From UHGV virus genome UHGV-1832398: a stretch of 15,603 nt of DNA; one strand, given 5' to 3'. The position numbers and the translations under genes were made by a program. Under the pieces are notes generated by a model, which did not search any database, was not told the DNA's origin, and worked only from the letters and a program-made list of their open reading frames with translations. The stretch comes from a virus. Positions 1,814 to 14,405 of the stretch are shown here, piece after piece (the stretch's first letter is position 1; each line of letters opens with the position of its first letter).

Positions 1814-3028
1814 ATGACTAAGCAAAAAAAACCTAGGAAAGTTCGGATAACAAAAGCTGAAAAAGAACGACGTGCAGAGTTTGATAAAAAGGAAATGAAT
1901 ATACGTGAGTATTTTTCAAATTTAAATAAACATGTGAACGATATTCGTAGTAAAGAGCGAGATTTTCATGGCCTTATCAGAGAACTGAATTACTTTCAAA
2001 AAAATATTGAATTTGAATACGAGAAAACGAGGGACATATCCCATCCAAGAGACTTAGGCAATGCTCGCGAAAATATACTAAAAGATTTTTTGAAATTAAG
2101 CGGTTTATTCCCAAGGCGTTATGCTGTGTCTTCAAGAAGCGTAAGAGTTGCTGCTGCTACAGGACATCTTAGCAACGAGATTGACATCGCATTATATGAT
2201 GCAGATGATGGATATGTGCTAATGCAGCGTAACGAAATATATGATGTTTACCCTTCTGAAAATGTATATGGAGTTATTCAAGTAAAATCAAAACTTACTA
2301 GGAAAGAATTAAGCAGTGCCATAAAAAATATTGCATCATATAAAAAACTACAAAGAAAAAAGAATGGCCATGGATTTTTTATAAATAACACATCATTCTC
2401 AGGGTTCGGAGTTGTTTTTGCATATGAAACAGAAATGCACTGGGATGATATAGTATCTGCTCTTAAGGAAGAAATCCAGAGTAATGAAACAAAATTACTA
2501 CCCAATGCAGTTTTCATATTAAATAAAGGCTATTTTTTATTTGGTAACAACAATGAATATCTGAGTTATAATTCAGATAGGATGATTAATGCAACTGACA
2601 TGATTGTACATGGCTTTCCTGATCGTGATGGTTGTTCCTTAGTTAACTTCCACAAGTTAATGATTACATTGTTGAATAATACTCAAAAAGGGAATGTAAA
2701 TATAAGTGATTATTATAGATTACCTTTAACTGCTGGAGATTATTCTTACGAATTTAATTTTGGTATGTTTAATGAGTTAATTAACTGTGAAGTACACGGT
2801 CCATATCATCGTTTATTCAAAGAGAAAGCTTTAAAAACATTAGTAAATTATTGTGTTAGCAATGAACAGATTAATATGGTTAAGTTAATCGACTTGGCTT
2901 TAGGTAAAACTCCAAATAATGAGGAAGCATACCAAAGACAACCATCGATGGTGACATTATATAACCCAGAAAATTTGCCACTACCTGAATTAATGTTTAG
3001 GGCGGTTCCGATGGTAAAGAATATATGA
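1814..3028 (+). CDS. Hypothetical 404-aa cargo protein; N-terminal region carries a restriction-endonuclease-like (Mrr/PD-(D/E)xK-type) signature, C-terminal ~220 aa unassigned
   Basis: Long ORF, markedly AT-rich relative to flanking phage genes. Motifs read from translation: GNARENILKDFLKLSG (aa 82-97), EIDIALYD (D124 at nt 2183-2185), VIQVKSK (Q156 at 2279-2281, K158 at 2285-2287). Followed by hairpin plus T-tract at 3168-3206. Confidence 0.6.
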   Translation: MTKQKKPRKVRITKAEKERRAEFDKKEMNIREYFSNLNKHVNDIRSKERDFHGLIRELNYFQKNIEFEYEKTRDISHPRDLGNARENILKDFLKLSGLFPRRYAVSSRSVRVAAATGHLSNEIDIALYDADDGYVLMQRNEIYDVYPSENVYGVIQVKSKLTRKELSSAIKNIASYKKLQRKKNGHGFFINNTSFSGFGVVFAYETEMHWDDIVSALKEEIQSNETKLLPNAVFILNKGYFLFGNNNEYLSYNSDRMINATDMIVHGFPDRDGCSLVNFHKLMITLLNNTQKGNVNISDYYRLPLTAGDYSYEFNFGMFNELINCEVHGPYHRLFKEKALKTLVNYCVSNEQINMVKLIDLALGKTPNNEEAYQRQPSMVTLYNPENLPLPELMFRAVPMVKNI

Positions 3029-3667: not shown

Positions 3668-4204
3668 TTATGCGCATGTGTGTAACTCCGATAACTCGTT
3701 AAAGCGCTCTATAAACATCCCGTAGGCATGGCCCGGTGCCAGTGGAATCACGTTGAACATCTCTGTTGCCGGGATGCCTTCCAGCACAGGCCAGAAAGAG
3801 CCATCATCAAGCCCGAGATCGCGGCGTTCGGTTGCCAGCATGATGAGATCGGCATATTTCACGGGCGTACTCATAACTGGGGGTAACCCGTATTTCTCAC
3901 GGATTACGGCGTCTATTTTTTCTTCCATCCGTTTATAGTCAGGAAGAAGGCGTTTCAGTGGTGCGGGGATGTCCTGGCAATATGCTTCTGTTGCATCATG
4001 CATTAACGCTTCAAAAACAAATTCCTGCGGTACCAGCTGGCTGCAAAGCACCGCATGTTGGGCGACGCTGTAGAAGTGTGAAAGATGCCCTGCAAAGCGA
4101 CAGATATTTGAAAGGGAAACCGCGATATCGTTAATCACGATATCGTCTTTATTTATCTTGTCATAATAAAAATGCTTCCCGGAAAAAGTTTTAATAAATG
4201 ACAT
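3668..4204 (-). CDS. yfdR: HD-domain 5'-deoxynucleotidase, YfdR-like (178 aa)
   Basis: HD-phosphohydrolase motif pattern (H...HD...D: FAGHLSHF, ALMHDATEAY); start at internal Met MSFIKTF supported by SD GGAG 8 nt upstream (the ORF track's longer start at 4234 lacks an SD); length matches CPS-53 YfdR from memory. Confidence 0.75.
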   Translation of the reverse strand: MSFIKTFSGKHFYYDKINKDDIVINDIAVSLSNICRFAGHLSHFYSVAQHAVLCSQLVPQEFVFEALMHDATEAYCQDIPAPLKRLLPDYKRMEEKIDAVIREKYGLPPVMSTPVKYADLIMLATERRDLGLDDGSFWPVLEGIPATEMFNVIPLAPGHAYGMFIERFNELSELHTCA

Positions 4205-4331
4205 TTTGTTCTCCACGTATATGTGCTGCACCACGCTGAATTCTGGTAAAAGGAAGCCCTCACCATCCGGCGATTATTGAGTTAATTACGTTTCCATAAA
4301 TGCCCCCGCAGGGGCATTTGCAGTAATGAAA

Positions 4332-5221: not shown

Positions 5222-5584
5222 TTAACGACCTGCTGCGCGGAGTTTTCCGTCAGGTTCACCGGCAAGAGTCAGTAACTGTCCCTGGTCTTCCTGCAGAATA
5301 GTCAGGCGACCACCGCGATTGACATACATCGGCGTTTCGGTGGTGTCTTCTTCGGAAATTTTCCCGCGGTTAGTCGGGCGAACATATGAGAGTTTGTGTT
5401 TGATTTTCACACGGTTCTCATCAAATGGTTCGATTTCCAGGTTGAGTGAGACCTTACCTTTGGTTTTCGTGTTCATCACACCGGAAGCGACTTCACTGAG
5501 AACTGCGCCGATTTTGGTTTCAAATACGCCGCCGTCCAGCTCCCCGATAAATGCCTGCACATCAGTACTGCGTTCGCTAGCCAT
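5222..5584 (-). CDS. yfdP: YfdP-like small prophage protein (120 aa); the ORF track's 226-aa version is an unsupported N-terminal extension
   Basis: Strong SD GAGGAG 7 nt upstream of the ATG at 5584 (MASERSTDV...); the upstream extension in the same frame is Arg/Cys/Pro/Trp-rich, typical of GC-rich non-coding read-through. Confidence 0.6.
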   Translation of the reverse strand: MASERSTDVQAFIGELDGGVFETKIGAVLSEVASGVMNTKTKGKVSLNLEIEPFDENRVKIKHKLSYVRPTNRGKISEEDTTETPMYVNRGGRLTILQEDQGQLLTLAGEPDGKLRAAGR

Positions 5585-5920
5585 TTTGCTGCTCCTCATC
5601 ATATCGACCCTGCAAGGCCGATTAGTTTCTCCACAAAACAGAGAAGAACACCTGCGGTGGCAGCCGCCCGGATGGATTGGGTTATGAGCCCGTCGTCCGG
5701 TGATGCTCTTCTCTGTTTTGTAAAAAGGACGGTACCAGCCGGAAGCAAGGGTACAAACTGGTACCGCCGGGACTACACACAGCATAAAGTTGTGGTGCCG
5801 GGTGCCTCCCGGTGCCTGGCGAAGGTTGCACACCAGACGGGTGGGTATCCACAGAAGGTCGACTGTCAGCCTCAACCTTAACCCGCGTGCGCTGAGCCGC
5901 ATTCACCACAACGCTAAGGA
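5585..5920. other. GC-rich, ORF-free, highly self-complementary segment in the leftward early transcript (candidate structured RNA element)
   Basis: 15-bp perfect inverted repeat 5633-5647 / 5707-5721; additional nested complementarities 5731-5738/5758-5765, 5789-5797/5904-5912, 5822-5828/5872-5878; overlapping ORFs in several frames (typical of non-coding GC-rich DNA), none with an RBS. Confidence 0.3.
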
Positions 5921-6666: not shown

Positions 6667-7293
6667 TTAGAGTTCGTATTGAACTCCTTTGACTACACCA
6701 ATGATAAGGCAATTACCATTGATAGGGATGTTGGGATACCGAGGATTTAATGGCACTAAAAACTTTTGAGGGCCATCGATGACTAATTTTTTTACTGTAG
6801 CTTCGTTTGTTCCATCAAGTCGAGCGATGACTATTTTTCCATGACGAGGTTCTGCATCTGGATCTACAATCACTGTTGCGCCTTCTGGTATTGTTGGGAG
6901 GCCATTAGGGTTAGTCATGGAGTCACCTTTAACCTCTAATGCAAATGAGTTATCACCAATCTTTAATGATGTATCTACCCACTTGTCCACTTCACTAAAC
7001 ACTTCTGCTGCCCTGCACTCAGTAAACTGCCCAGCCTGAACCCACGATATTACAGGAACTCTGCGCATGTTTGTGACGAGTTTGCCTTCAAACTCAGCAC
7101 CATAAAGAATGTAATCTATTGACGTATTGAAGAACTTCGCTAATTTCGAAAGTGCCTCCCCACCAGGGGTATTGATGTCTTTCTCCCAGTACCCCACAGC
7201 AACGTCGCTTACTCCACAAAATTTACCCAATTCTTTCTGGGACGTTCCGGTAACTCTTCTCAGAGCTTTTATACGCTGACCAACCGTTTCCAT
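6667..7293 (-). CDS. cI: CI-type prophage repressor with N-terminal HTH and C-terminal LexA-like S24 autopeptidase domain
   Basis: HTH region (QKELGKFCGVSDVAVGYWEKD); Ala-Gly cleavage site (WVQAGQF); Ser/Lys dyad motifs (GDSM ... VKKL). Confidence 0.9.
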   Translation of the reverse strand: METVGQRIKALRRVTGTSQKELGKFCGVSDVAVGYWEKDINTPGGEALSKLAKFFNTSIDYILYGAEFEGKLVTNMRRVPVISWVQAGQFTECRAAEVFSEVDKWVDTSLKIGDNSFALEVKGDSMTNPNGLPTIPEGATVIVDPDAEPRHGKIVIARLDGTNEATVKKLVIDGPQKFLVPLNPRYPNIPINGNCLIIGVVKGVQYEL

Positions 7294-7390: not shown

Positions 7391-7591
7391 ATGACAACTG
7401 ACGATATCGAAAGCTACTTCGGCAGTATTGAGAAAGTTGCTGCTTTTTTCGGCATAACAACTGAAGCCGTTTATCAGTGGCGAAACCGTCCGGGCCAGTT
7501 AATTCCAAAAGGACGTGCAGCAGAAGCTGCATATAGAACTTGCGGACGGTTGCCATTTAAACCTGAGCTTTATGAAAAATCTAATGGATAA
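7391..7591 (+). CDS. cro: Cro-like small HTH regulator
   Basis: 66-aa ORF divergent from cI with SD GGAGGG; HTH-like segment (VAAFFGITTEAVYQWRNR). Confidence 0.7.
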   Translation: MTTDDIESYFGSIEKVAAFFGITTEAVYQWRNRPGQLIPKGRAAEAAYRTCGRLPFKPELYEKSNG

Positions 7592-8180
7592 ATCGATTAA
7601 CAGAAACCACAGAACGATGAGGCTAACCGTGGGTAAGCATCACTGGAAAGTAGAAAAACAGCCTGAGTGGTACGTGAAAGCTGTCAGAAAAACTATCGCA
7701 GCGTTGCCGGGTGGTTACGCTGAAGCAGCTGACTGGCTGGATGTAACAGAAAACGCATTATTTAACCGCCTTCGTGCCGATGGCGATCAGATTTTCCCGC
7801 TGGGATGGGCAATGATTTTGCAACGTGCTGGTGGAACTCACTTCATTGCTGACGCTGTGGCGCAGTCTGCAAATGGCGTCTTTGTGTCTCTTCCTGACGT
7901 CGAGGATGTGGACAACGCCGATATTAACCAGCGCCTGCTGGAAGTCATTGAACAGATTGGCAGTTATTCCAGACAGATTCGTTCGGCAATCGAAGACGGT
8001 GTGGTGGAACCGCATGAGAAGACAGCAATTAACGACGAGCTGTATCTCTCAATTTCGAAGCTGCAGGAGCATGCAGCACTGGTCTACAAAATCTTTTGCA
8101 TTTCAGAAAGTAATGACGCCCGCGAGTGTGCAGCTCCGGGCGCCGTGGCGTGTCGTGACTGTGGAGAAACTAACGCATGA
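7584..8180 (+). CDS. CII-like regulatory protein (possibly phage 186 CII/CP76-type); start uncertain
   Basis: Position immediately after cro; the ORF track's start at 7515 overlaps cro, so the ATG at 7584 (overlapping the cro stop) is preferred but has no good SD; family assignment from recalled similarity only. Confidence 0.5.
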
Positions 8181-8535
8181 ACAGTTTAACAACACACTAC
8201 CGTCGCTCGCAACTGATTGCGCTTCCTGTACCGGGTGGAAAAGCGAAGGTGGAGTATTGCTATGCAGTTAATGTACCAGGTGACAGGGAAATTGTAACCC
8301 ACAGCTTTGCTGAGTGGGCTGTGGGGGATTTCAACCGGCAGAAGGAGACAGTCCTTTGCGACAAGTTAACCGCTGGTTCAAAGATCACTACGGAGTGCCC
8401 GTCAGAGTCATTCGTTGGGAGCCGGAAACACAACGAGTTATCTACCTCCGCGAAGGCTATGAGCATGAGTGCTTCAGCCCGCTCGAACAGTTTCGTCGTA
8501 AATTCAGGGAAATAGAGGTCGGTCATGAGCACTAA
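8177..8535 (+). pseudogene. Hypothetical gene between cII-like and the replication initiator, apparently split across two frames at a G5 run (8323-8327): N-terminal part 8177.. in one frame, C-terminal part ending 8535 in another
   Basis: ATGA start/stop overlap with the upstream gene at 8177-8180; second frame has a GTG at 8314 or a TTG at 8356 preceded by AAGGAG (8342-8347) and ends overlapping the next gene's start; both halves look protein-like; inserting one G in the homopolymer would fuse them into a ~119-aa ORF. Confidence 0.3.
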
Positions 8536-9466
8536 ATTAACCGGCTATGTATGGGATGGTTGCGCTGCATCAGGCATGAAATTATCCAGCGTGGCAATTA
8601 TGGCCCGCCTGGCTGATTTCAGTAATGACGAAGGTGTGTGCTGGCCATCAATTGAAACCATTGCCCGTCAGATTGGCGCGGGAATGAGTACCGTCAGAAC
8701 GGCTATCGCACGGCTGGAAGCAGAAGGCTGGTTAACGCGTAAGGCGCGTCGCCAGGGTAACCGCAATGCGTCGAATGTTTATCAGCTTAACGTTGCGAAG
8801 CTTCAGGCAGCGGCATTTTCTCAACTGTCAGATTCTGACCCGTCAAAATCTGACGCATCAAAATCTGACCCGTCAAAATTTGATGCGTCGAAATCTGGCA
8901 AAAAAGCGGGTTTTCACCCGTCAGAATCTGGCGGGGATCCGTCAGTAAAATCAAAACATGATCCGTCAGATAAAAAACCTTCTCGTCCGGACGCTTCGCA
9001 ACCGGACACGCAGACGGATGAACAGGATTTTTTAACTCGCCATCCTGATGCGGTTGTATTCAGCCCTAAAAAGCGCCAGTGGGGAACGCAGGATGATTTG
9101 ACCTGCGCACAGTGGCTCTGGAAAAAAATCATCGCCCTGTACGAGCAAGCCGCCGAATGTGACGGCGAGGTGGTTCGTCCCAAAGAACCGAACTGGACAG
9201 CCTGGGCAAACGAAATTCGCCTGATGTGTGTGCAGGATGGTCGTACTCACAAACAAATCTGCGAGATGTACAGCCGCGTCAGCCGCGATCCGTTCTGGTG
9301 CCGTAACGTGCTCAGCCCGTCGAAGCTGCGGGAAAAATGGGATGAGCTTTCCCTGCGCTTATCGCCGTCCGTCAGCACGTACACAGAAAAACGCGAAGAC
9401 CCGTACTTCAAAGCCAGTTACGACAATGTGGACTACAGCCAGATCCCGGCAGGATTCAGGGGGTGA
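8525..9466 (+). CDS. Replication initiator (lambda O-like organisation): N-terminal winged-helix DNA-binding domain, iteron-containing linker, C-terminal domain
   Basis: N-terminal HTH region (SVAIMARLADFSNDEGVCWPSIETIARQIGAGMSTVRTAIARLEAEGWL); tandem 15-bp DNA repeats inside the gene encode a low-complexity linker (SDSDPSKSDASKSDPSKFDASKS); SD GAGG upstream. Confidence 0.75.
   Translation: MSTKLTGYVWDGCAASGMKLSSVAIMARLADFSNDEGVCWPSIETIARQIGAGMSTVRTAIARLEAEGWLTRKARRQGNRNASNVYQLNVAKLQAAAFSQLSDSDPSKSDASKSDPSKFDASKSGKKAGFHPSESGGDPSVKSKHDPSDKKPSRPDASQPDTQTDEQDFLTRHPDAVVFSPKKRQWGTQDDLTCAQWLWKKIIALYEQAAECDGEVVRPKEPNWTAWANEIRLMCVQDGRTHKQICEMYSRVSRDPFWCRNVLSPSKLREKWDELSLRLSPSVSTYTEKREDPYFKASYDNVDYSQIPAGFRG
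8834..8975. repeat. Putative origin of replication: four tandem 15-bp iterons (TCTGACCCGTCAAAA-type at 8834, 8849, 8864, 8879) plus three dispersed CCGTCAG copies (8917, 8938, 8962) and an A-rich stretch
   Basis: Direct reading of the sequence; analogous to the ori-within-O arrangement of lambda. Confidence 0.6.
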
Positions 9467-9468
9467 GC

Positions 9469-9957
9469 ATGAGTCTTTTGAATGACGTTCAGAAATTCAT
9501 TGAAGCCCATCCGGGCTGTACTTCCGGAGACATTGCGGATGCTTTTGCAGGTTACTCACGGCAGCGCGTTCTGCAGTCAGCAAGCAAGTTACGTCAGAGT
9601 GGGCGTGTGGCTCACCGTTGTGAAGGAGATACACGCAGACATTTCCCGCGCCTGACTGAGAGAGCGCAGGAACCGGAACCACAACCAGTTCGAGAAACCA
9701 GACCTGTGCGCAATTTCTATGTCGGCACTAACGATCCACGGGTGATTTTGTGCCTGACCCGCCAGGCTGAAGAACTGGAGTCCAGGGGCTTATACCGTCG
9801 TGCTGCAACCGTGTGGATGGCGGCATTCCGTGAAAGCCACTCCCAGCCAGAACGAAACAATTTTCTGGCGCGTCGTGAGCGGTGCTTACGGAAAAGCAGC
9901 AAGCGCGCTGCATCGGGTGAAGAGTGGTATCTGTCAGGGAATTACGTGGGGGCTTAA
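9469..9957 (+). CDS. PerC-family-like transcriptional regulator (N-terminal HTH-like region plus PerC-like motif)
   Basis: Motif TRQAEELESRGLYRRAATVWMAAF resembles the conserved PerC/Pch core as I recall it; ATG at 9469 preceded by AGGGGG; the ORF track's GTG at 9463 overlaps the upstream stop. Confidence 0.5.
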   Translation: MSLLNDVQKFIEAHPGCTSGDIADAFAGYSRQRVLQSASKLRQSGRVAHRCEGDTRRHFPRLTERAQEPEPQPVRETRPVRNFYVGTNDPRVILCLTRQAEELESRGLYRRAATVWMAAFRESHSQPERNNFLARRERCLRKSSKRAASGEEWYLSGNYVGA

Positions 9958-10283
9958 TGACGACGTTAACTCAATGCCAGCAGCAGGTGCTGGATATGCT
10001 GATTTCTTATCAGAAAGAACGTGGCTTCCCGCCAACCAATCAGGAGGTGGCAACCATGCTGGGATACCGTTCGGTGAATGCAGCGGTGGAGCATCTTCGT
10101 GCGCTGGAGAAAAAAGGCGTCATCACGATAAAGCGTGGCGTGGCCCGGGGGATAACGCTTCATACCGCGGTGAAGGACGACGACAGCGAGGCGGTCGGGA
10201 TTATCCGCGCACTGCTTGCCGGTGAGGAAAACGCAAAGCTGCGTGCAACCCACTGGTTACATGAGAGGGGCCTGAAAGTATGA
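9957..10283 (+). CDS. LexA N-terminal DNA-binding-domain protein lacking the S24 peptidase domain
   Basis: MTTLTQCQQQVLDMLISYQKERGFPPTNQEVATMLGYRSVNAAVEHLRALEKKGVI aligns closely with the LexA N-terminus (MKALTARQQEVFDLI...[34 protein letters not shown]); ORF ends after ~108 aa with no Ala-Gly/Ser/Lys autopeptidase motifs; TAATG overlap with the upstream gene. Confidence 0.8.
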   Translation: MTTLTQCQQQVLDMLISYQKERGFPPTNQEVATMLGYRSVNAAVEHLRALEKKGVITIKRGVARGITLHTAVKDDDSEAVGIIRALLAGEENAKLRATHWLHERGLKV

Positions 10284-10669
10284 AGCTGATCCTGCCTTTT
10301 CCGCCCAGCGTGAACACGTACTGGCGACACCCCAACAAAGGGGCGTTTGCTGGTAAGAGCCTGATAAGCGCGGCGGGGCGAAAATTTCAGAGCGCGGCGT
10401 GTGCAGCAATAGTTGAGCAGTTACGTCGTCTGCCAAAACCAACGTCGGCACCTGCTTCAGTGGAGATCGTGTTGTTTCCTCCGGATAACAGGATCCGCGA
10501 TCTGGACAACTATAACAAGGCACTGTTTGACGCCCTGACACACGCGGGTGTGTGGGAAGACGACAGCCAGGTGAAAAGAATGCTGGTGGAGTGGGGACCG
10601 GTTATCCCGAAAGGGAAGGTCGAGATCACTATCAGTAAGTATGAGAAACCGGCGGGTGCAGCCGCCTGA
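10280..10669 (+). CDS. rusA: RusA-family Holliday junction resolvase
   Basis: Motifs LPFPPSVNTYWRH, RIRDLDNYNKALFDALTHAGVWEDDSQV match RusA; ATGA overlap with the upstream gene. Confidence 0.9.
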   Translation: MKLILPFPPSVNTYWRHPNKGAFAGKSLISAAGRKFQSAACAAIVEQLRRLPKPTSAPASVEIVLFPPDNRIRDLDNYNKALFDALTHAGVWEDDSQVKRMLVEWGPVIPKGKVEITISKYEKPAGAAA

Positions 10670-11499: not shown

Positions 11500-12495
11500 G
11501 TGACCGTGAGAGCATTACTGACCCCTGAAATTGCCCCGCGTATGGGGATCGTATTGTTCAGGCCAGGTTCAGAGCTGATGCCCCTGTTTATGCAGGGGCG
11601 TGTCCTGCTGGAGCCTGAGCCGGAACGTTATTCATCTTTCGCCAGTGGTGCCGTTCCGGCGGCATCACAACCGCTGGCGGATGATCCTGCCGTTCGGGCC
11701 GTGTTCCGCAATGAGGCAGTGATCCGTCGTGCTGGTGGCGTGGAATGTCTTGAAAGCTGGTTACTTCGTGAAAAAGGCTGCCAGTGGCCTCATTCCGATT
11801 GGCACAGCGAGAACATGACCACAATGCGACACGCGCCGGGCGCAATCCGTCTGTGCTGGCACTGCGATAACCAGCTGCGTGATCAGTTCACGGAACGGCT
11901 GGAATCAATGGCAACGGATAACTGTGCCCGCTGGGTGTTGTCTGTTGTGCGTCGGGATCTCGGTTTTGATGACAGTCACGTTGTGACAATGCCGGAACTG
12001 TGCTGGTGGCTGATTCGTAATGACCTGGCGGATGCCTTACCGGAAAGTGCAGCCCGTAAGGCACTGAGATTACCGAAGCCTGTTGTGCCGTCTGTCACCC
12101 GGGAAAGTGACCTTGTGCCTTCGGTTCCTGCCACCAGCATCATCCAGGATAAGGCGAAAAATGTGCTGGCGCTGAAAGTGGATCCGGAGTCGCCGGAGTC
12201 TTTTATGTTACGCCCCAAACGTCGCCGCTGGGTTAATGAAAAGTACACGCGCTGGGTTAAGACGCAGCCGTGCGCATGTTGTGGAAAGCCAGCTGATGAT
12301 CCCCACCACCTGATAGGCCACGGTCAGGGTGGAATGGGTACAAAAGCGCATGATCTCTTTGTGTTGCCTTTGTGCAGAAAGCATCACGACGAGCTGCATG
12401 CGGATACCGTGACATTTGAAGAGAAGTATGGCTCCCAACTGGAGCTGATATTTCGTTTTATCGATCGTGCGCTGGCAATTGGCGTACTGGCGTAA
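11500..12495 (+). CDS. DUF968-type prophage protein (YdfU-like) with C-terminal HNH-like Cys/His motif
   Basis: C-terminal CACCGKPADDPHHLIGHGQGGMGTKAHDLFVLPLCRKHHDELH; GTG start 1 nt after the KilA-N stop; position between KilA-N and Q as in Qin-type late-regulatory regions. Confidence 0.65.
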   Translation: MTVRALLTPEIAPRMGIVLFRPGSELMPLFMQGRVLLEPEPERYSSFASGAVPAASQPLADDPAVRAVFRNEAVIRRAGGVECLESWLLREKGCQWPHSDWHSENMTTMRHAPGAIRLCWHCDNQLRDQFTERLESMATDNCARWVLSVVRRDLGFDDSHVVTMPELCWWLIRNDLADALPESAARKALRLPKPVVPSVTRESDLVPSVPATSIIQDKAKNVLALKVDPESPESFMLRPKRRRWVNEKYTRWVKTQPCACCGKPADDPHHLIGHGQGGMGTKAHDLFVLPLCRKHHDELHADTVTFEEKYGSQLELIFRFIDRALAIGVLA

Positions 12496-13676: not shown

Positions 13677-13889
13677 TCATGAAAGGTAAACATTGGCAGC
13701 TGAAGGGCCACGCAGACCATTTATCCGGCAAAATTCCACGCGTAATCCGGTGGTAATTTCTTCTGCATCGCGGAGATTGAGCGCTGAAACATGAAGCTGG
13801 ACATCGATACGACCATCGGATGGGGTGATAAGACCCTTGCCGCTTTTGCCGTCAAAGGTTTTGACAATTCCTGTCATTTTACGGGACAA
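13677..13889 (-). CDS. cspF: CspF/CspH-like cold-shock-domain protein
   Basis: 70 aa; [26 protein letters not shown] ... [14 protein letters not shown] has the cold-shock-domain fold pattern but lacks the canonical aromatic RNP motifs, as in CspF/H. Confidence 0.8.
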
Positions 13890-14189: not shown

Positions 14190-14405
14190 ATGTCAAATAA
14201 AATGACTGGTTTAGTAAAATGGTTTAACGCTGATAAAGGTTTCGGCTTTATTTCTCCTGTTGATGGTAGTAAAGATGTGTTTGTGCATTTTTCTGCGATT
14301 CAGAATGATAATTTTCGAACCTTATTTGAAGGTCAAAAGGTTACCTTCTCTGTAGAGAGTGGTGCTAAAGGTCCTGCAGCAGCAAATGTCATAATTACTG
14401 ATTAA
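14190..14405 (+). CDS. cspB: CspB/CspA-family cold-shock protein
   Basis: 71 aa; [19 protein letters not shown] ... VFVHFSAI (RNP1/RNP2 motifs); conserved 5'-UTR 'upstream box' GCCGAAAGGC at 14161-14170 as in cspA-family leaders. Confidence 0.85.

Follow-up and report, generated by a model that had tools for sequence, protein, structure and literature searches.

The replication systems closest to the one described here are those of phage lambda, of the 'O-only' lambdoid phages, of the host protein DnaT and of the YdaU-YdaV module of the Rac prophage. In lambda the origin (ori-lambda) lies within the gene of the initiator, O, where the part coding for the linker of the protein contains tandem dyad-symmetric iterons, with an A/T-rich tract after them. 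O-only replication modules, which were counted in 34 of 314 Enterobacteriales lambdoid phages including phage LLS, have a single O homologue and neither a helicase nor a helicase loader, and the study that reports them calls this type of replication "not yet understood" (Zheng et al., 2025; PMC12315714). The 15,603 nucleotides of viral DNA analysed here (UHGV virus genome UHGV-1832398; the whole stretch is termed the window) belong to a temperate lambdoid prophage of the CPS-53/SfII/SfIV type and make up its early region. They contain, at 8525–9466 on the + strand, the gene of a 313-residue lambda-O-like origin-binding protein, the replication initiator, which has an iteron origin of the lambda layout within it and no loader gene, an arrangement that is a published and very common class and as a feature is already known. 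The subject of this work is the C-terminal tail of this initiator, a peptide that closely resembles the end of DnaT, that accompanies DnaC-type and never P-type loaders in the loci compared, and that may serve to recruit the helicase-loader complex of the host.

The initiator matches phrog_391 ('replication initiation O-like', E 1e-135) and is E. coli K-12 yfdO in its intact state, with residues 192–313 being 99% identical to K-12 YfdO. Its gene is present, whole or in part, in 2,725 of 5,426 complete E. coli genomes (in 1,576 with at least 80% coverage), at up to four places per genome and at 12 places on plasmids. In RefSeq it is named simply 'helix-turn-helix domain-containing protein', with no reference to replication, and some phage records annotate it as 'primosomal protein'. 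At the DNA level the gene is 98% identical in phages SfII, SfIV and Kati, the surrounding region (8100–10300) is 97–99% identical in Shigella phages SfII and SfIV, Escherichia phages Kati and PhiR49, and others, and at the protein level this region has a 100% match on a Shigella flexneri chromosome. A scan of IMG/VR with the initiator alignment found only 96–100% identical copies and no wider diversity.

Like lambda O, the initiator combines an N-terminal winged-helix DNA binder with a C-terminal domain that is homologous between the two proteins, and it differs from lambda O in the family of its N-terminal domain, in having no accompanying P gene, and in its end, which reads IPAGFRG where lambda O ends NTDWIYGVDL. 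The N-terminal domain (residues 1–98; 8525–8818, + strand), the presumed reader of the iterons, matches Pfam HTH_36 at residues 23–70 (E 4e-11) and gave no Pfam match to Phage_rep_O (PF04492), the domain found at this position in lambda O, although both families are winged helices. Structurally it is like the winged helices of MarR and TFE and the N-terminal domain of DnaD, and when the whole initiator was compared by sequence with PDB chains, only MarR-type winged helices were returned, all of them for this domain and none for the C-terminal domain. It is followed by a disordered linker of Ser, Asp, Pro and Lys (residues 103–162; 8831–9010, + strand), which is encoded by the part of the gene that holds the iterons and differs in length among homologues. 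In an AlphaFold2 model built with 45 homologues, confidence was good for the winged helix (residues 1–98), fell below a predicted local distance difference test (pLDDT) score of 50 in the linker (103–162), and was low in the tail (284–313), while the helical domain at residues 164–280, modelled alone, reached a pLDDT of 85 and a predicted template modelling score of 0.71.

The initial annotation of this DNA had suggested that the C-terminal part may recruit host DnaB or DnaC directly. A domain search of this part, as that annotation proposed, resolved it into two elements, a globular domain and a terminal peptide. The helical domain (residues 164–280; 9014–9364, + strand) is homologous to lambda O's C-terminal domain (BLASTP E 7e-26, covering lambda O residues 187–270, about half of which are identical), a relationship that was not found in the literature searched, and the corresponding part of lambda O, residues 156–299, serves experimentally as the P-interacting module (PMC12661323). 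The Trp and Cys residues that had looked conserved are indeed so, since W186, W227, W272 and C246 are retained by every one of 45 homologues. The same domain is, however, also carried by relatives that have a P loader, and it is therefore not what makes a loader dispensable. The second element is a disordered C-terminal tail (residues 292–313; 9398–9463, + strand) that ends DYSQIPAGFRG and is proposed here to be a docking peptide. Organisers of the DnaD or SPP1 G38P type from Firmicutes have hosts and loaders unlike those of the window phage, and in the initiator Pfam DnaD_N scores 19.4 bits (under its cut-off of 27), DnaB_2 has no match, and the likeness of the C-terminal fold to the DnaD/DnaB type is marginal.

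The repeats of the origin are not due to chance. According to Tandem Repeats Finder, a 15-bp unit (TCTGACCCGTCAAAA) is repeated 4.3 times at 8834–8897, and when up to three mismatches are allowed the unit has five matches in the window, all within 8834–8926, compared with 0.43 expected, a number reached in none of 200 shuffled sequences. The tandem 15-bp iterons that were originally noted inside the initiator open reading frame (ORF) are therefore real, and they can also be read as six 13-bp near-palindromes (GTCAAAATCTGAC; 8827–8932) that start at 8827, 8842, 8857, 8872, 8887 and 8920, the first five of them (8827–8899) at 15-bp phasing and the sixth set apart. This differs from the lambda record, which annotates four 18-bp iterons, and near-palindromic 13-bp sites would fit a dimeric winged-helix reader. 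The heptamer CCGTCAG occurs 10 times in the window versus 1.03 expected, with seven of the 10 copies between 8399 and 9375, and the three additional copies that had been reported beyond the tandem array are found at 8918, 8939 and 8963. The last two sit in an A-rich tract to the right of the iterons (8940–8979), a candidate unwinding element that had likewise been pointed out and that is genuine though modest, with 35% G+C, an AT skew of +0.46 on the top strand and the lowest G+C content within the initiator gene.

In most of 18 relatives examined, iterons lie at nucleotides ~290–530 of the initiator gene, while their sequence and period (15, or 22–24 bp) vary with the subtype of initiator, much as a genuine origin should behave. 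An origin assisted by DnaA was ruled out, as no DnaA box is present within it, the nearest boxes with one mismatch are at 7907 and 8160, and boxes are not enriched in the window (seven versus 4.0 expected). By analogy with lambda O, where binding and unwinding are concerned, the region can be regarded as a lambda-style replicon whose initiator gene contains the origin.

The phage lacks both a helicase and a loader gene of its own. None of the window ORFs tested had a P, DnaC/IstB or DnaB match in Pfam, PHROG or NCBIfam, and hidden Markov models (HMMs) built here for P (PF06992), DnaC/IstB (PF01695) and the DnaB family found nothing at E ≤ 10 among the six-frame ORFs of the window, which covers 15.6 kb of the phage, or of the complete genome of phage SfIV (39,758 bp), on which the whole-genome check was made. 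The one Walker-A-like string occurs in a 61-codon open frame at the edge of the window, and the remainder of SfIV is annotated mostly with structural, glucosylation (gtr), lysis and insertion sequence genes. The original observation that no helicase or loader gene lies 3' of the initiator is thus upheld, and a loader overlooked elsewhere in the window was sought by domain search without one being found. That the loader is missing because the prophage is defective was ruled out, since the same module is present in the deposited complete genomes of phages SfII, SfIV, Kati and mEp460, and LLS, which has the same architecture, propagates on E. coli K-12 (PMC12315714). Similarly, a conserved hidden partner gene was rejected when clustering of the neighbours in 14 loader-less loci gave no universal family.

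The likeness to LLS extends beyond the single O homologue and the absence of helicase and loader, as both phages have no recombinase match in the left arm and many Chi sites (for LLS, PMC12315714). The two initiators are 75% identical over residues 1–180, that is, the N-terminal domain and linker, and differ in the domain that follows, which is Phg_2220_C in LLS O and the lambda-O-type domain in the window initiator. LLS O nevertheless ends KIPEGFRG. In the text available to us, the LLS paper reports the absence of the loader and makes no mention of the tail (PMC12315714).

The motif [ED]-x2-3-IP-x-GFRG at the very end of the protein is what the initiator has in common with DnaT. The initiator ends ...DNVDYSQIPAGFRG and E. 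coli DnaT ends ...SEPDSQIPPGFRG, such that eight of the last nine residues are identical (SQIPAGFRG and SQIPPGFRG, respectively). Among ~110 DnaT sequences from Enterobacteriaceae, which are 71–100% identical overall, nearly all have an ending closely similar to [VIL]S[EQ]PDxxIPxGFRG. When initiators with this ending (GFR-tailed initiators) were compared with the DnaT family using hhalign, only the last 21 residues aligned (probability 89.5%, E 2e-6), which indicates a shared terminal peptide rather than a shared domain and rules out homology of the whole C-terminal domain with that of DnaT. In agreement with this, the DNA-binding three-helix domain of DnaT (PF17948) has no match in the initiator, compared with E 4e-21 for E. 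coli DnaT itself, and the DnaT N-terminal domain is also absent, so that the likeness amounts to ~21 residues. DnaT is, moreover, recruited by DNA structure via PriA and PriB, whereas the initiator is presumably recruited by DNA sequence. These differences in recruitment and domains mean that the label 'primosomal protein', which some pipelines presumably assign because of the tail, overstates the relationship.

The tail is widespread among relatives of the initiator. Of 93 near-full-length homologues, 76 end in GFR followed by zero to two residues, the other 17 having either lambda-like ends ('...NTDWIYGIE...') or '...HWNSPEAWENTL'. In one homologue of 347 residues the motif is present twice, as …DYSIPKGFRG… and, at the very end, as …ETEIPHGFRG, and this duplication, together with the low AlphaFold2 confidence of the tail, is typical of a short linear interaction motif. 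Literature searches on the PPGFRG or PGFRG motif yielded no relevant paper, those combining YdaU/YdaV with DnaT/DnaC yielded none either, and neither the DnaT-type tail on these initiators, nor its exclusive association with DnaC rather than P, nor its presence on LLS O was found in the searchable literature.

The gene that accompanies the initiator can be predicted from the type of its tail. A set of 80 loci, consisting of one genome per species and of individual protein look-ups, was reduced to 61 by the removal of near-duplicates, the tails were classified, and the downstream DNA was searched with the P, DnaC and DnaB HMMs. In the 33 loci with a lambda-like tail of the Trp type, the initiator gene abuts a P-type loader in 28, a DnaC-like gene in none and no loader in five. 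The 16 loci with a GFR tail include no P-type loader, two DnaC-like genes and 14 with nothing. The association between tail type and partner is significant by Fisher's test (p = 6e-9, calculated without phylogenetic correction). The same linkage is seen from the side of the loader, as 77 IMG/VR contigs were found to have a DnaC-like gene of the enterobacterial phage type, and in 75 of these the upstream ORF, which belongs to at least two initiator families, ends PD[TS]xIPPGFRG. Judged from these comparisons, the tail is linked strictly to loaders of the DnaC type, and never to those of the P type, in the loci examined.

The GFRG-type tail is found on at least five unrelated architectures, and any loader gene that follows is of the DnaC type. 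It is present on DnaT (PF17948 domain), where the next gene is dnaC, and, as with DnaT, a dnaC or DnaC-like gene comes next to the tail-bearing phage initiators that do have a loader. Rac YdaU (DUF1376 domain) ends VNTVSLPDSAIPPGFRG and is followed by the DnaC paralogue ydaV, and in Salmonella phage FSL SP-016 an incomplete ORF 5' of a DnaC-like gene bears the tail. Three loader-less initiators have it as well: that of the window (HTH_36 plus the lambda-O-type domain), LLS O (HTH_36 plus Phg_2220_C; end VDTKIPEGFRG), and an HTH_36 initiator of Stx2c phages that is without the lambda-O-type domain and has a different C-terminal domain, with the last 25 residues identical to those of the window protein. 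Hence, in the loader-less initiators examined from Enterobacteriaceae and Erwiniaceae, the globular C-terminal domain appears to be exchangeable while the tail is kept. The window and the Stx2c-converting phages (locus L259, 3258–4076) have a mosaic joint at about 9391, which is the start of the tail. The only DNA that they share (98% identity) begins with the segment coding for the tail and continues across yfdN and the LexA-domain gene, and 5' of the joint the Stx2c-converting phages carry their different HTH_36 initiator.

The Rac module is like the window module in its tail and in its position in the early right operon after the cro and cII analogues. It differs in the N-terminal domain, DUF1376, in the C-terminal 75 residues of YdaU, which are homologous to DnaT and not lambda-O-like, and in having its own DnaC-like loader. 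YdaU residues 211–285 (L175:2620-3477) and DnaT residues 111–179 (L004:79-618) are 40% identical (E 9e-9), and given that the next gene is of the DnaC type in both cases, dnaT-dnaC and ydaU-ydaV look like homologous two-gene modules. A separate observation concerns the 'O' protein of Klebsiella phage 6 LV-2017 (L178:1464-2255), in which a Phage_rep_O domain at the N-terminus is combined with a C-terminal region of the YdaU/DnaT type. The protein ends '…TEIPSWARD', and its gene overlaps a more divergent DnaC-like gene. This end may be a variant of the docking motif.

Based on these comparisons, a mechanism can be proposed in which dimers of the N-terminal winged helix would bind the six 13-bp iterons and the strands would open at the adjacent A-rich tract, both steps by analogy with lambda O, and in which the tail would be a short peptide that docks with a loader of the DnaC type, as comparative genomics suggests. 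In Rac-type phages the partner of the tail would be the phage-encoded DnaC paralogue directly downstream, while in loader-less phages it would be the DnaC6-DnaB6 complex of the host. The initiator, bound at the origin, would bring this complex to the opened strands and thereby act as an origin-specific mimic of DnaT. That the tail recruits the host DnaC-DnaB complex is the reading favoured here, with a confidence that falls slightly short of even. The suggestion in the initial annotation that the C-terminal part of the initiator recruits host DnaB or DnaC is accordingly refined, the distinguishing element being the extreme tail and not the lambda-O-type globular domain, which is shared with P-dependent relatives. 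Also counted in favour of recruitment by the tail are the absence of DnaA boxes from the origin and the presence of YfdR (3668–4234, − strand), an HD-domain 5'-deoxynucleotidase and modulator of host replication that is encoded by the prophage and is 97% identical to K-12 YfdR. The K-12 protein binds DnaA and lowers the binding of DnaB to DnaA-oriC complexes (PMC4776307), and YfdR would fit, as a matter of speculation, a strategy of diverting the helicase-loader complex of the host.

A broader proposal, to which we attach somewhat less confidence and which is put forward as tentative, is that [D/E]-x2-3-IP-x-GFRG is the link by which DnaT itself hands DnaC-DnaB to the loading site, that in temperate phages of Enterobacteriaceae it has become joined to no fewer than four origin-binding scaffolds that are unrelated to each other, that O-only phages would be origin-specific DnaT mimics making direct use of the host loader, and that dnaT-dnaC and ydaU-ydaV share ancestry.

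Several points weigh against recruitment of host DnaC-DnaB by the tail. How DnaT recruits DnaB/DnaC "remains unknown", and a 2026 paper on the preprimosome suggests that this involves the DnaT N-terminal domain (PMC13377028). The sole biochemical datum for DnaT residues 154–179 is that they contribute to affinity for single-stranded DNA (ssDNA) and to cooperativity (PMC4132743). The tails that stand beside phage DnaC paralogues are nearer to the DnaT tail than are those of loader-less initiators, which runs counter to what would most simply be expected were host DnaC the target. The loci in the co-occurrence counts are phylogenetically non-independent, and both this helicase-recruitment mechanism and one based on the PerC-like neighbour rest wholly on comparative sequence evidence. 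There is, finally, a second loader-less class from Providencia, Proteus, Edwardsiella, Sodalis and Morganella (L021, L024, L025, L027, L028, L030, L031, L034, L053-L058, L075 and others, with L062 from Morganella; 11 loci when made non-redundant), in which the lambda-O-type domain is followed by a Trp-containing extension of ~60 residues ending '...GRKAWAGIWQQAAEQAA...'. These have no GFR tail, and P, DnaC and DnaB genes were sought downstream of them and none was found, so the tail is not the sole route to doing without a loader.

The alternatives fare less well. One is that the tail, as a mimic of DnaT, serves to engage PriA and PriB rather than DnaC, with the initiator opening the origin and recruiting PriA-PriB, together with host DnaT, after which the restart pathway would load DnaB. 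This finds support in that DnaT is a preprimosome component touching both PriA and PriB (PMC13377028), in the name 'primosomal protein' that the initiator has in some records, and in the properties of the O-only class, which is without a recombination module and rich in Chi (PMC12315714). The window fits this pattern, as it has five Chi sites (GCTGGTGG), at 7827, 10582, 11731 and 12002 on the + strand and at 12131 on the − strand, where 0.38 are expected and none of 200 shuffled sequences has that many. The lack of a recombination module and the richness in Chi point to reliance on the recombination and restart functions of the host. The contacts seen by cryogenic electron microscopy are, however, assigned to the linker of DnaT for PriB and to its globular C-terminal domain for PriA, not to the tail, and engagement of PriA and PriB leaves unexplained the tight linkage of the tail to a DnaC-type gene in three architectures and never to P. 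We consider it unlikely.

We hold it to be equally improbable that the tail is an element for ssDNA binding and cooperativity that stabilises the opened origin, in the manner of the C-terminal tail of Bacillus subtilis DnaD, with the helicase being recruited by another surface, such as the lambda-O-type domain acting on DnaB or DnaC. A generic ssDNA binder should not exclude P-type loaders, which were found next to 0 of 16 GFR tails and 28 of 33 Trp-type tails, and the lambda-O-type domain is common to P-dependent initiators and has been swapped in LLS and in the Stx2c phage with the tail being kept.

Less probable again is that the initiator merely opens or marks the origin and that replication is mainly recombination-dependent, by way of RecBCD and Chi, RecA D-loops and PriA. 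It is consistent with the Chi content of the window and with the absence of any Pfam match to recombinase families among the nine left-arm ORFs scanned, and the study of LLS states that RecBCD enhances its growth and that the class is Chi-rich and without Rec modules (PMC12315714). RecBCD is reported as enhancing growth, not as being essential, and a mainly recombination-dependent mode would account neither for the elaborate iteron origin that the initiator gene conserves in most relatives examined nor for the conserved tail.

A last possibility is that a small neighbour is a non-homologous loader or adaptor, the candidates being YfdN, a PerC-family protein of 164 residues with an N-terminal winged-helix-like region (9463–9957, + strand; Pfam PerC E 8e-9; phrog_1324, 'transcriptional activator'), and the 112-residue protein encoded directly 5' of the initiator (8177–8515, + strand; phrog_1170; RefSeq 'DUF4222 domain-containing protein'). 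Loader families without sequence similarity to those previously known do exist, as in VdhL1/2 (PMC11087808), the segment coding for the tail stays joined to yfdN on the shared side of the Stx2c mosaic joint, and homologues of the 112-residue gene lie 5' of the initiator in nine of 14 loader-less GFR-tail loci, abutting it in six. Nevertheless, a role of either neighbour as the loader is very remote, as the 14 loci have no neighbour family in common, a PerC-like neighbour occurs in just four of these non-redundant loci and is not found in the Klebsiella and Pantoea modules or in LLS, and similar small winged-helix genes also follow modules with DnaC-like loaders (L008 and L046). In phages of the SfII type a methylase gene parts yfdN from the initiator, and a homologue of the 112-residue gene is also found ~2 kb 5' of one P-coupled initiator, its family travelling with the YmfL-type cII gene. 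The replication role that the initial annotation had offered for the PerC-like protein is accordingly not sustained, and YfdN is, on the comparative evidence, probably a neighbour and not part of the replication machinery, while the 112-residue protein may have an accessory role.

The remaining genes of the window are those of a lambdoid early region. The integrase gene (386–1609) is followed by one for a 404-residue DUF6602 protein (1814–3028), which lies beside it in the usual position of cargo or defence genes, and then by a putative excisionase-like HTH ORF, by yfdR, by a YfdQ/DUF2303 gene, and by the genes of a cI-like repressor (6667–7293, − strand), cro (7391–7591) and a CII/YmfL-type activator (7515–8180). 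An ORF of 226 residues on the − strand (5222–5902) has no family match and is far longer than the 120-residue K-12 YfdP at the corresponding position, its 5' end probably being over-extended. Several long overlapping ORFs on both strands at 5300–5900 suggest an unusual composition there.

Downstream of yfdN, a LexA DNA-binding domain protein (9924–10283) is followed in order by RusA, KilA-N, DUF968/HNH and antiterminator Q genes, and Pfam searches confirm the gene order given originally for this side, from the PerC-like gene through to Q. Two genes like those of cold-shock proteins (13677–13889, − strand, and 14190–14405, + strand) lie between Q and a P21-type holin gene, the last in the order, an arrangement that we take to be the same as in the late region of the K-12 Qin prophage. 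At the junction of the initiator and yfdN genes (9463), the region matches SfII, Kati, PhiR49, vB_EcoS-569R4 and further phages in two separate pieces, and the records of those phages have a gene for a DNA adenine methyltransferase at this junction. K-12 CPS-53 keeps a fragment of the methyltransferase gene (yfdM), and the window and SfIV are without it.

The tail shared by the loader-less initiators and DnaT joins two open questions, namely how O-only phages replicate, as posed in PMC12315714, and how DnaT recruits DnaB/DnaC (PMC13377028). If the proposed function of the tail is true, a docking motif for the helicase loader would be identified, and this would explain how about one in ten lambdoid phages manages without a loader. 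It would also correct the annotations 'helix-turn-helix domain-containing protein' and 'primosomal protein' for a gene that roughly every second complete E. coli genome carries.

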